IMG/VR virus record: IMGVR_UViG_2675903538_000006
Span: 1 to 16,904 of that record
DNA length: 16,904 nt
Source: a virus
Taxonomy: Duplodnaviria > Heunggongvirae > Uroviricota > Caudoviricetes
Direction: 5' to 3' (one strand)
In this document: positions 12,001 to 16,904 of the stretch, in pieces
How positions within the stretch are numbered: the first letter of the stretch is position 1
How the letters are laid out: every line of letters starts with the position of its first letter
Position numbers: made by a program

Positions 12001-15000
12001 ACCATGCAGTATTCAGAGATTAGGCATATATCCAGGCTCCTCATCGCAGGAGCCTTTTTACATGCAAAAAAAAAACCGCTCCTGGGAAGAGAGGCTGGCA
12101 AGAAGAAACAATATGAACAATTAATTAACGATGGGAATAATACCTTAGAGTAATCACCTTGCGCAACTGTAAGGGTATATTTCATCTTTGCGGGCTGTTT
12201 TTCTGTGTGGCTTCTGTGTTTCCGGAGGGCTGCCTGTACCTTTTCTGACTCAGAACATTATCCCGACCGGGAGGATTCATGACATTTAAACATTACGATG
12301 TGGTCAGGGCGGCATCGCCGTCAGACCTTGCTGAACGACTGACACAAAAACTGAAGGAGGGCTGGCAGCCATTTGGCAGTCCGGTGGCCATCACGCCTTA
12401 TACCCTGATGCAGGCCATTGCGGCGGAAGGTGATGTCACCACACCAGTGGCGGTGACCGGTAATGAGGGTGAGGCGGTGGCTGTCAGCGCCACCAGCGAC
12501 CCGGAGTATTACTTTGTTGTGGTTCTGGCAGGGCAGTCAAATGGTATGTCGTATGGTGAAGGTCTTCCGCTGCCGGAGACATATGACCGTCCGGACCCGC
12601 GTATTAAGCAGCTGGCGCGTCGCAGTACGGTGACACCGGGCGGTGTCGCCTGCAAATATAACGACATCATTCCGGCGGACCATTGTCTGCATGATGTGCA
12701 GGACATGAGCCGCCTTAACCATCCGAAAGCGGACCTGTCAAAGGGGCAGTACGGTACCGTGGGGCAGGGGCTGCATATCGCCAAAAAACTGCTGCCGTTT
12801 ATACCGGCGAATGCGGGCATTCTGCTGGTTCCGTGCTGTCGTGGTGGTTCCGCGTTCACCACCGGAGCTGATGGCACATACAGTGACGCGAGTGGTGCCT
12901 CGGAGAATTCAACCCGCTGGGGTGTGGACAAGCCGCTGTATAAGGACCTTATCGGTCGAACAAAAGCAGCACTGAAGAAGAACCCGAAAAATGTGCTGTT
13001 TGCCGTGGTGTGGATGCAGGGGGAATTTGATTTTGGCGGTACGCCGGTAAATCACGCCGCACAGTTTGGCGCGCTGGTTGATAAATTCCGTGCAGACCTG
13101 GCGGATATGGCAGGCCAGTGCGTCGGTGGCTCTGCTGGTGGTGTTCCCTGGATATGCGGGGACACGACGTATTTCTGGAAGCAGAAGAACGAATCCACGT
13201 ACCAGACGGTGTACGGCAGCTATAAAAACAAAACGGAAAAGAATATCCATTTCGTACCGTTCATGACGGATGAGAACGGGGTGAATGTGCCGACGAACAA
13301 ACCGGAAGAAGACCCGGACATTCCGGGTATCGGGTATTACGGTTCGAAATGGCGTGACAGCTCAGCCACCTGGACGTCACAAGACAGGGCGAGCCATTTC
13401 AGCACCTGGGCACGCCGGGGGATTATTTCCGACCGTCTGGCAACGGCGATTCTGGTGCACGCCGGGAGAAGCGCTGAATTCATTACCGGAAAACAGCCTG
13501 ATATGGTGAGGCCCACCGTACCTTCCGGTGAAGGTCCGGAGATAGAGGCGGAAGCCCCGGCCAGTAAGCGTACCCTGATGAGTCTGCTGGCATCCGGCGA
13601 AGACCTGGCATCACAGGGCTGGCGCTATTATCACAAACCGGCGGGCGGAGACAGTGTTAACAAAAACATTGCTGAAGCGGTGGTCAGTGATGCGGGGGCT
13701 ACGGGAGGTAAGGCTCTGCAACTGAACAAACCGGAAAACCACATCTGGTTTCTGGAGCATGATGCAGCCGGACAGGGGGCGGAGTTACTGAAGAAGGGCG
13801 GACGTGTGAGCGTACGGTTTAAGTTGCCGGGTTCACTGGTGCCGAATCAGTTTGCCCTGGGCATTTACTGGCAGTTGTCGTCCCTGCCGGAGGGGGTGAT
13901 GCTGTCAGGAGAAGGTAACGATATGCTGATGTCCTTCTTTCTGCAGACGGATACGACGAACCTGAACGCGATGCATCACAGGAAGCCTAATGCGAAGCTG
14001 GATACATTCGGGGTCTTTGATAACGGATGGCACACGCTGGCTTTTGAGTTTGCCGGCAACAACAGCATTCAGGTGACTCCGGTTCTGGATGAGAAACGGG
14101 GAGCGGCGTTCACACTGGTGAAGTCACCGGCATCGGGGGCGGCGGACAAACTGCAACTGAACGATATATCAAGATCGGCGACGTATACGCTGCTGATTGA
14201 CAGCATTGCGGTGGAAGTGAACAGCACAGACACTGCGGCATGATAAAAAAAACCGCCAGCGACAGGAATGGACGCTGGCGGTGGTAATACCTATGGAGAA
14301 AAAATAAAGGAACGATACTTTCGTACTCTGGTTTTTTAATGAAAACAGTTCCCATTGTCAACAATAACGGTAAGAAATTAAACCTGGTCACTGCTGAAGC
14401 AGTGAAGGAAGTCCTGCGCTCTGAAGAAGTCCGGAGCGCACTGAAACAGAAACTTCGCCATAACCTGGAAGCGCGTCTTGATGCAGAAGTGGATGCCATT
14501 CTGGATGAACTGCTGGGCGCACCGGCAGCTCCGGAGCCGGAAGGCATCGCGGGAGAGGGGAGTGCTTCAGATAGCGGTGACCCCACACCTGACAGCGACA
14601 TGATGATGTAAGCATGCGTCAGGGACCATCGGTGTGTGCCGGTGGTCTTTTTTATTGTTGTGAGCTTCCGGATTGCGGGAGACGGGGTATGTACCAGATG
14701 GAAAAAATCACAACAGGTGTGTCATACACCACGTCAGCGGTGGGAACGGGCTACTGGTTCCTGCAGTTGCTGGACAGGGTTTCCCCGTCTCAGTGGGCGG
14801 CAATAGGCGTGCTGGGGAGTCTGCTGTTTGGTCTGCTGACATATCTGACGAACCTGTATTTCAAGATTAAAGAAGACCGTCGTAAGGCGGCACGGGGAGA
14901 GTAGGTGATGAACCATGAAGAAATGAATCAGCGCTTCAGTCGTCTGGAAAATGAAATTGCTGAACTGAATAAAAAACTGTCGGTGCTGATGCCTTCTGAA

Positions 15001-16904
15001 GATGCAAACAAACGCCGCGATGAGCAGTTTGCGGCGTTTTACGATGATTGCATCAAAATTGCTCGCAGGACCTTTGCGAATATTTTGCAGGAAAAGTTTT
15101 TACCGACCGCATTGTCAGAAAAGTACTCCATTACGGTTAAAAGTGCCGGAGAGGAAGGCAATAAACGTTATTTTATTGCGTCTGCACCGGATAAAGACCA
15201 GGAATGGGGGGGTAATCGGCCATCTTTTATTGTGACAAGCGATGACTGGAATATCACGATCAGTGAAGATGGAAAAGTAACACCAGCATCGCACCAGCAC
15301 AGTGAGGCGCTCATTGAATTTGCCATTGATTACATGAAGAACAATAAAAAGCAGGGGCTGATGCAGCGCATTGGTCGCTGCATGGGATATCTGCAGCTGG
15401 CGGCAGAGATTGAAGCACTTGCCTGTGGTGCTGACAAGGATGCAGTTGTGCGGGAGGCTCTTCTTCGTGAGTTTGACAACCCGCCCTTTAAAAAAGTGCC
15501 GGCTTACTGGTTTCATCCCGGACTGACTTATCTGAAAGGGCGGTTTGGGGAGAGGTTATCTGAACTTAAGCGATAGTTTATTGAAGAGCCGTTTTTTTTG
15601 CAGACAGGCAAAGTTTTTATCCCATGAACAACCCGGGTGACTGAGTTCGTCATTAAACCATTTGTTAATGTTGTGCTTCAGATGCTGAAGCATCAATGGT
15701 GTTAATGTGGTGATAATGATATCCAGAGTTTCTGTTGAAAGCATGCCGTAAGGCTCTGAGAGAATGGCCTGAGTGGCCTCGCTGTTATCCGGGATAAGCG
15801 CTTTTAATTCTGATTTAACATTTTCGTTCATTATCTGCAAAAACTCTTTGCGTAAATTGTTGTCATTATTATTCATTTATAAAATCTCATTTGTTGTTAC
15901 CGGGTGTGTCCTGGTGCCTGTTGATTATATTCATCGTGAGTACCGGATTATATATCTGACATATCCAGGAATAAGAGAGCTATAAATCCTGATAAATATC
16001 CATGAACGCAAAAATCAAATACGGCCTGTCAGCTGCCGTTCTGGCGCTGATTGCCGCAGGGGCTTCTGCGCCTGAAATCCTCGACCAATTTCTGGATGAA
16101 AAGGAAGGCAACCACACCACGGCATACCGTGATGGTGCGGGTATCTGGACCATCTGCCGAGGTGCCATCATGGTGGATGGTAAGCCTGTGATTCCTGGCA
16201 TGAAGCTGTCGAAGGAAAAATGCGACCGGGTTAACGCTATCGAACGGGATAAGGCGCTGGCATGGGTGGAGAAAAACATCAAAGTGCCACTGACTGAACC
16301 CCAGAAAGCGGGTATTGCGTCATTCTGTCCTTACAACATTGGCCCCGGTAAGTGTTTCCCGTCGACGTTTTATAAACGAATTAATGCAGGCGATCGCAGA
16401 GGAGCGTGTGAAGCGATTCGCTGGTGGATTAAGGATGGTGGCAGAGACTGCCGTATCCGCTCAAATAACTGTTATGGTCAGGTATCCCGTCGTGACCAGG
16501 AGAGCGCGCTGGCGTGCTGGGGTATCGACAGATAAGCAGAATATTTTGCTGAAAAATGACGTTGCTCAACGCGGGCGGATAACACGAAATCCTGCGAACT
16601 GGCAAAACCTAAGTGAATAAAAGTAAAAACCCCGTTTGTTGGCAGCAAGCGGGGTTTTGTGTTTCCTGACTTCGGAAAAGTCAAAGGAGAAAGTGTGTTT
16701 GATTTTAGCAAACTGATTCGGGAGATTCGAGTGATGGCTGAAAAATTATCCACCTGGAAGTTCATCCTTATCTGGCTGGTGTTTGTGATTATGGCCTCCG
16801 GTTATTTCATCGGTCAGATACGCTGGTGGTGAAATGAACCGCGTTCTGTGTGTGGTCATCATTGCCCTGCTGGTGGCCTGTGGTGCGCTTAGTCTGGGGC
16901 TGAA

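Follow-up and report, generated by a model that had tools for sequence, protein, structure and literature searches.

Introduction

The closest described counterparts of the two genes treated here are YdfR of Escherichia coli K-12 and, in architecture, a defence pair from a Pseudomonas phage. YdfR uses its residues 1-72 to bind RNase E, in the catalytic N-terminal half of that enzyme, and co-purifies with RNA (PMC13232886). Tab, from Pseudomonas phage JBD26, is the 83-residue product of a minus-strand moron that has its own promoter within the late operon; it is constitutively expressed in the prophage state and prevents invading phages from assembling their tails, and its partner is anti-Tab, a forward gene coupled to the late operon (PMC10884400). 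Here we analyse two genes, A and B, that lie between the pinholin gene (S) and the signal-anchor-release (SAR) endolysin gene (R) in positions 1 to 16,904 of the Caudoviricetes record IMGVR_UViG_2675903538_000006. This whole stretch of 16,904 nucleotides (hereafter the window) is the late region of a lambdoid prophage that converts its host to Shiga toxin 1a (Stx1a) production. Sequence comparisons indicate that the insert is two independent modules rather than a single two-gene system.

The lysis cassette sets the timing of lysis and so the release of Shiga toxin in E. coli strains that make this toxin (STEC). Accessory genes embedded in it are therefore candidate modifiers of toxin release, prophage stability and phage resistance. 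Two comparative papers on Stx phages do not discuss an S-R insert, and DUF1327, the domain that defines YdfR, is mentioned in only one paper of the searchable literature. The genes themselves are not new: A and B are already public as hypothetical proteins, their homologues have been sequenced in Stx2 phage 86, both are in PHROGs, and the slot is known from ydfR. On a near-identical E. coli chromosome (99.9% over 14850-16050), PGAP names both WP_057108845.1 (A) and WP_001063217.1 (B) "hypothetical protein". We favour, at a probability of about 0.6, a reading in which A and B are two accessory modules, each independent of the other, that occupy a recombination hotspot, with B expressed from the prophage and probably engaged in phage-phage conflict, and A acting as a late accessory protein.

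A and B as separable modules

The S-R region of the window contains the following features.

14689..14904, plus strand: S21-type pinholin gene S (Pfam PF04971, E 6.2e-33; PGAP "class II holin")
14908..15576, plus strand: gene A, 222 amino acids; starts 3 nt past the S stop, at the Met at which its homologues also begin
15556..15876, minus strand: gene B, 106 amino acids; convergent with A, with a 21-nt overlap
~15540..15970: the exchangeable B cassette, consisting of gene B and the stretch of spacer that is allele-specific; left breakpoint at the A 3' end, right breakpoint at the pre-R element
15877-16001: spacer between B and R, 125 bp, 36% GC
15957..16001, plus strand: conserved pre-R element defined by alignments, TGACATATCCAGG...ATAAATCCTGATAAATATCC, directly before the R ATG
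16002..16535, plus strand: SAR endolysin gene R (Phage_lysozyme PF00959, E 4.4e-24; annotated lysozyme/rrrQ)

The pinholin gene has a dual start (Met at 14689 and Met at 14698). Its TAG stop (14902-14904) is followed directly by GTG at 14905 and ATG at 14908, and a GGGGAG Shine-Dalgarno sequence lies within the S 3' end at 14894-14899, 8 nt 5' of that ATG. The GC content is 38% in B and 36% in the spacer, versus 53-54% in S and R. These features bear out, coordinates included, the preliminary description of the locus, which had reported an insert of ~1.1 kb made up of a 222-residue gene coupled to the S stop, an AT-rich minus-strand gene of 106 residues overlapping it by 21 nt, and an AT-rich spacer of 125 bp before the endolysin gene.

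We compared the window with two sets of IMG/VR loci. One is a census of the 80 loci with the most similar holin (≥99% identity), of which 68 have both S and R; the other comprises 65 loci that carry B. An intact forward gene, in the place that A occupies, is missing from 46 of the 65 B-bearing loci, including 43-48 kb contigs that resemble full-length prophages, and is frameshifted in 3 more. B stands alone in L005-L011 and in prophage Sp4 of strain Sakai. In L009-L011 the S and B stops are only 47 nt apart, with nothing between S and B; in L005-L008 and Sp4 the forward gene is a stump, MNKQYELVVK and then a stop, and B is intact. Of the 68 census loci, 15 have the A C-terminal domain but no B, as an A-type gene alone in 8 and fused to DUF1327 in 7.

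Where both genes are present, their alleles are shuffled separately. The window and locus L017 are ~96% identical through A, only ~50-60% identical from ~15525 to ~15970, and similar again beyond that point; the A proteins are 93% identical and the B proteins 47%. Such sharp breakpoints, with a 93% identical A beside a 47% identical B, argue that B is a discrete exchangeable cassette. Separate occurrence and independently shuffled alleles together argue that A and B are not a co-evolving pair, and on these comparisons they do not form an obligate one. Most A homologues terminate at ...KGRI, after 213 residues, and the window allele carries 9 residues more. The alignments indicate that this tail is allele-specific, created at the left junction with the B cassette, and hence that the 21-nt overlap of A and B is particular to the window allele.

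The S-R slot across prophages

In 15 of the 68 census loci S and R are adjacent, 1-4 nt apart. The other 53 have an insert, and all 53 inserts open with a forward YdfR-family gene a few nucleotides past the S stop. This gene consists of DUF1327 only in 19 loci, is A-type without DUF1327 in 8, and is a fusion of DUF1327 with A in 7; the forward gene is joined by further cargo in 19. The cargo is a minus-strand gene just 5' of R and belongs to phrog_2411 in 10 loci, to the B family in 4, to phrog_18136 in 3 and to phrog_10490 in 1, and is a 233-residue orphan in 1. All five families are antisense to the late operon and lie beside the same pre-R element (for the four alternatives to B, in L030, L037, L003 and L021). 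The four alternatives to B have no significant match in Pfam or PADLOC (best E 1.3e-05), and their PHROGs matches are to families of unassigned function. The configuration in the window, A without DUF1327 together with B, occurs in 1 of the 68 loci.

The corresponding slot of the K-12 prophage Qin reads essQ-ydfR-rrrQ. The preliminary description had taken S and R to be normally adjacent. Adjacency is typical of Stx phages of the 933W/VT2-Sakai type, but not of E. coli prophages with the holin of the window, as the 53 filled loci and ydfR in Qin demonstrate. Since most related E. coli prophages fill the S-R slot with variable cargo, the arrangement in the window is a common one and no exception. 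The S-R junction is a routinely filled hotspot of swappable cargo, with a mosaic forward family and at least five minus-strand families, and this cargo is a compact, defined set of candidates for defence and lysis-timing assays. We considered whether loci without B hold decayed copies of it, and rejected this: only the pre-R element, of 45-80 nt, is held in common. In one locus (L021, positions 673-900 of the S-R gap) a free-standing DUF1327 gene of 75 residues lies 3' of an A-type gene and before the minus-strand cargo, so the DUF1327 module can exist as a separate open reading frame (ORF) in this slot.

Nearly all insert-bearing loci share the pre-R element (TTAACATATCCAGGG...GATAAATCCTGATAAATATCC) regardless of their cargo, and the alignments identify it as both the hotspot's right flank and the R leader. 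In all insert-bearing loci the R ATG is preceded by an A/T-rich leader (GATAAATATCC) that lacks a canonical Shine-Dalgarno sequence (positions 15990-16001 in the window; also in L004, at the K-12 rrrQ start), whereas R in the S-R adjacent loci uses the strong GGGGAG within the S 3' end. Insert-bearing prophages may therefore translate R quite differently. Cassettes of the phage 86 type have a minus-strand terminator-like hairpin (CGCCAGTG-GTGG-CACTGGCG, then a T-run) between the pre-R element and the cargo gene.

Gene A is a mosaic relative of YdfR-family proteins

A is a member of phrog_1085 (E 3.9e-100; residues 1-213 align to profile positions 117-296). It has no match in Pfam (E<=0.1), NCBIfam or PADLOC, and BLASTP gives no alignment with K-12 YdfR. 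A database search returned 176 homologues, and all those with a named source are E. coli or Shigella proteins; in a survey of 185,579 species-representative genomes, relatives are limited to Escherichia and Shigella. Homologues of 213-333 residues are 57-96% identical to A, and the longer ones bear PF07041 (DUF1327). When aligned, the family is strongly mosaic. An N-terminal DUF1327 module (PF07041), a linker, a coiled coil and a middle segment are optional, and the invariant part is a conserved C-terminal domain, approximately residues 100-213 in A, with the consensus ...NRPSF.V...ENGK...H.HS...RIGRCMGYLQ.AAEIEALA.GAD...PPFKK.P..W..PGLTYLKGRI. The window A has an N-terminal coiled coil, the middle segment and the C-terminal domain; the DUF1327 and linker modules are absent, and A begins after them in the alignment.

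On this evidence A is the DUF1327-less counterpart of the C-terminal modules of the long proteins that NCBI names "YdfR family". A has no match to the YdfR/DUF1327 domain above the Pfam gathering score; it does occupy the YdfR slot, directly 3' of an S21-type holin gene and 5' of an endolysin gene. The preliminary description had found no recognisable family for either protein. That stands for Pfam, NCBIfam and PADLOC, but not for PHROGs, which places A in phrog_1085 and B in phrog_1853, both of them families of unassigned function, and A is homologous to the C-terminal part of "YdfR family" proteins. The ratio of nonsynonymous to synonymous substitution rates (dN/dS) for A is 0.25-0.65. The protein is predicted to be soluble, with no membrane segment (maximum 19-residue hydropathy 0.92), and a sequence-profile search of the PDB with the A family gave nothing significant.

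Two smaller features lie within A. An antisense ORF of 133 residues (15115-15516, minus strand) is open in several related loci (79-133 residues, start MKPVSRHFFKG...) and is most likely a shadow of the conserved plus-strand frame, not a gene. Near the 3' end (15481-15544) is an inverted repeat, CCGCCCTTT at 15482-15490 and AAAGGGCGG at 15536-15544. It is kept in all loci with both A and B and missing from loci with A only, and for the latter reason we set aside a structural RNA at the A 3' end.

Gene B is a conserved protein-coding gene confined to the slot

B is a member of phrog_1853 (E 2.2e-44), with no match in Pfam, NCBIfam or PADLOC. An exhaustive search of 1.84 billion representative proteins with a hidden Markov model of the family found only 19 clusters, none annotated. 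All relatives with a named source are from E. coli, and the species-representative genomes contain none. Among 5426 complete E. coli genomes, the B family is present in 674 (~12%; blastn at ≥70% identity), a figure that is understated for divergent alleles such as the phage 86 type, which would raise it. The window allele is in 27 of these genomes, and the 1.2-kb cassette is likewise found, at 98-99.9% identity, in 27. The family is enriched in STEC genomes but not confined to them: isolates from dog, echidna and chicken that are not STEC have it too. In O157:H7 Sakai the relative of B is ECs1097 of prophage Sp4, between the holin gene ECs1100 and the endolysin gene ECs1096; we found no mention of ECs1097 in the searchable literature. 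In the loci examined, the B family is without exception on the opposite strand in the S-R interval.

B alleles from seven loci are saturated at synonymous sites (proportion of synonymous differences, pS, 0.63-0.81 between allele groups), with the frame intact and dN/dS of 0.15-0.35. The motifs NE.VKSE, AEPYG, LTP, NEELS and WD are conserved across the alleles. The retention of frame and motifs in B despite saturated synonymous divergence, together with the dN/dS values of A and B, shows that both are real genes rather than chance ORFs, and these values indicate that B is a protein-coding gene under purifying selection. The preliminary description had named an established function for the slot contents of related phages, or a minus-strand frame neither transcribed nor conserved as protein, as grounds for giving up its account; B is conserved at the protein level, and the contents of the S-R slot have no established function.

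The AlphaFold2 (AF2) model of B is confident (predicted local distance difference test, pLDDT, 86.8) and has five helices. With no signal peptide and no membrane segment found, B is predicted to be a small, soluble, all-helical cytoplasmic protein. A fold search with the model gave no specific match, and a PDB sequence-profile search with the family gave nothing significant.

Two perfect TATAAT hexamers lie 5' of B on the minus strand, at 15952-15947 and 15929-15924; they are candidate -10 boxes with weak -35 partners. A scan for promoters and terminators found no clear terminator after B. The B ribosome-binding site is weak, whereas the other four minus-strand cargo families have good Shine-Dalgarno sequences. 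Immediately upstream is a five-codon mini-ORF, MRFYK (15873..15890, minus strand), whose TGA overlaps the ATG of B (ATGA). Equivalent mini-ORFs, MRCYE and MKPYK, precede two other B alleles, and in a third (P0133) the mini-ORF is fused in frame, with the start MKFYKMNS. The mini-ORF could be a leader for translational coupling or the relic of an older start codon.

Possible functions and alternative explanations

What might two such modules do? We propose that A, a mosaic forward gene of the YdfR/phrog_1085 family, has captured the Shine-Dalgarno sequence at the end of S and the stop-start junction. The anatomy of this junction, and the use of the same junction by R where S and R are adjacent, suggest that A translation is coupled to S on the late transcript. 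A would then be made from the Q-dependent late transcript along with the holin and the endolysin, and its role would be an accessory late function rather than a core lysis function. B would be one of at least five unrelated small minus-strand genes that alternate just 5' of R, in an interval bounded on one side by the forward gene's 3' end and on the other by the conserved pre-R element. B is antisense and AT-rich, and purifying selection maintains it even in loci whose forward gene is missing or has become a pseudogene; for these reasons B most likely has a promoter of its own and would be expressed, like a classical moron, from the resident prophage. Two properties of morons are evident in B: it lies between genes that are adjacent in relatives (in 15 of 68 loci and in the VT2-Sakai/933W-type phages, B itself being in a minority of loci), and its base composition is unlike that of its neighbours (38% GC, and 36% in the spacer, against 53-54%). 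The most likely role of B is in phage-phage conflict, where it would bind a target protein and so act in defence or exclude superinfecting phages; the best functional precedent is Tab of JBD26 (PMC10884400).

Several points weigh against the proposal that A is a late accessory protein and B a prophage-expressed moron. Neither protein is linked by homology or fold to a known defence, anti-defence, lysis or regulatory protein. A consensus scan upstream of B finds no full sigma-70 site. The AF2 model of A is poor (pLDDT 46), which makes its structure unreliable, and the census loci are the best 80 holin matches, a non-random sample. The sole experimental result for the family, the interaction of K-12 YdfR with RNase E (PMC13232886), concerns the domain that A lacks. 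A bolder version treats the S-R junction as an unrecognised two-tier accessory hotspot, in which the minus-strand proteins of at least five families are prophage-expressed, Tab-like anti-phage effectors against the late functions of competing lambdoid phages, and the forward YdfR-family proteins are late counter-defence proteins or modulators directed at RNase E or RNA. We advance it only as a speculation, and think it unlikely in full; if it were true, both the defence protein B and its fold would be new.

A and B might instead be a cognate pair of the Tab/anti-Tab kind, in which B made by the prophage blocks a late step of incoming relatives, and A made late neutralises B during the phage's own lytic growth. 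The architecture is that of tab and atab, where a small gene on the minus strand faces a convergent forward gene whose translation is coupled to the late gene before it (PMC10884400), and whatever forward gene accompanies B always has the C-terminal domain of A (19 of 19 in the B-bearing set, 4 of 4 in the census). The stump with its premature stop beside an intact B, in the IS-bearing Sakai Sp4 and in other loci with a 687-nt gap, is also in keeping with such a pair. However, a defence gene of the Tab type always has its counter-defence partner, and 46 of 65 B-bearing loci, among them the contigs resembling full-length prophages, have no intact forward gene. In the L009 type nothing intervenes between S and B, the C-terminal domain of A is often present where B is not, near-identical A alleles adjoin B alleles that are only 47% identical, and the association that remains could simply reflect the A 3' end serving as the left recombination flank. 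We consider a cognate pair quite improbable. The preliminary description had also listed a toxin-antitoxin or abortive-infection pair among the candidate roles, and A and B are indeed two small adjoining prophage genes of unassigned function with overlapping 3' ends. That candidate has fared worst of all and is barely credible: the genes are convergent and not co-transcribed, they occur separately (46 of 65 loci have B but not A, and 15 of 68 have A but not B) with independently shuffled alleles, neither they nor their relatives have a PADLOC match or resemble defence proteins, and the overlap belongs to one allele, since most A homologues end 9 residues earlier.

Other alternatives concern one gene at a time. 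A could be a regulator of the lysis programme that acts on the pinholin, the SAR endolysin or late-mRNA stability, and so tunes lysis timing and Stx release. Its position between S and R, coupled to the S stop, would suit this role, as would the presence of a forward gene there in 53 of 68 loci and the retention of a homologous slot gene even in the cryptic prophage Qin. Most known holin-associated lysis regulators, such as antiholins, are membrane proteins; the absence of a membrane segment from A makes a membrane antiholin less likely but does not bear on a cytoplasmic regulator. K-12 YdfR, moreover, binds the N-terminal domain of RNase E and may bind RNA (PMC13232886). Against a regulator of this kind, DUF1327, the domain that binds RNase E, is missing from A, the family shows extreme mosaicism and frequent truncation or frameshifting, and adjacency of S and R in 933W/VT2-Sakai-type phages and 15 of 68 census loci implies that the gene is dispensable. 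A lysis regulator thus seems to us rather unlikely. For B, the act of transcription might matter more than the protein: convergent or antisense transcription from the B promoter would keep down leaky late expression in lysogens, be it of A, S or R. Every one of the five cargo families has the antisense orientation within the late operon, and with no strong terminator after B its transcripts would run into A and S. Purifying selection at the protein level despite saturated synonymous divergence, along with the conserved motifs, nonetheless shows that selection acts on the protein, and good ribosome-binding sites precede the cargo genes of the four other families, if only a weak one precedes B, which makes this a very improbable account. 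We give equally little credence to a host-directed role for B as a moron of virulence or regulation, such as a small protein that regulates genes of enterohaemorrhagic E. coli (EHEC). B does sit in Stx and pch-carrying prophages beside the lysogenic-conversion genes stx, nanS-p and PerC/PchA, and it is enriched in STEC genomes, but it lacks a signal peptide and any recognisable DNA-binding motif, it resembles none of the known effectors or regulators, and its family extends to the animal isolates that are not STEC.

Other features of the locus

The gene order of the window is Q, stxA/B, a NanS-p/SASA esterase gene, a DUF826 gene, the S21-type pinholin gene, A, B, the SAR endolysin gene and the start of Rz. 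The genes between Q and S are placed as follows.

10538-11773: stxA/B
12279-14243: NanS-p/SASA esterase gene
14339-14611: DUF826 gene

An Rfam scan of the S-R insert gave no matches. In the gap between nanS-p and the DUF826 gene there is a weak match to the EHEC small RNA (sRNA) Esr41 (RF02676; 14245-14321, minus strand; 30.9 bits against a gathering score of 102, E 0.003) over the full model length, with a minus-strand terminator-like hairpin and T-run at 14265-14253. This element may be a divergent Esr41-like sRNA. In E. coli prophages with the same S-B-R cassette (L009-L012), the stx position downstream of Q is filled by other genes (~3900-5900 in L009), namely those for a 263-residue protein with Enterotoxin_a/Scabin-like ADP-ribosyltransferase domains (PF01375, PF22596) and a TfpB-domain protein, and a 110-residue ORF.

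Comparison with known systems

The instance in the window is an accessory or moron gene in a lambdoid late operon, and it offers no pointer to a new kind of system. Among morons, bor and lom resemble B in being extra late-region genes that are absent from close relatives. The bor gene is antisense to the late operon, and it is annotated on the minus strand in phage 86. The products of bor and lom are envelope proteins with signal sequences, whereas B is predicted to be a cytoplasmic helical protein and has no signal peptide.

The resemblance to Tab and anti-Tab is one of arrangement: in both, the late operon contains a small gene on the minus strand and, convergent with it, a forward gene coupled to the late gene ahead. 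Tab, like B, has no similarity to known proteins (PMC10884400), and the likeness of Tab to B drawn here is one of architecture, not of sequence comparison. The two differ in that tab and its partner sit between the terminase subunit genes, in another host and another phage group, and in that Tab is always accompanied by anti-Tab whereas B is usually found without A.

The nearest relatives by descent and position lie in other E. coli prophages and Stx phages. YdfR of Qin and the long YdfR-family proteins occupy the same slot as A, starting a few nucleotides past the stop of an S21-type holin gene and preceding an R21-type endolysin gene. YdfR differs from A in its defining DUF1327 domain, which A lacks and to which RNase E binding maps. 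A closer counterpart is gp05 of Stx2 phage 86, a "YdfR family protein" of 268 residues that, like A, belongs to phrog_1085, and whose C-terminal part is 78% identical to residues 67-213 of A. B is matched in family (phrog_1853), position and orientation by orf6/gp06 of the same phage and by ECs1097 of Sakai Sp4, each convergent with the forward gene and divergent from R. Their amino-acid identity to B is only 46-62%, ECs1097 has no intact forward partner, and all are annotated as hypothetical proteins.

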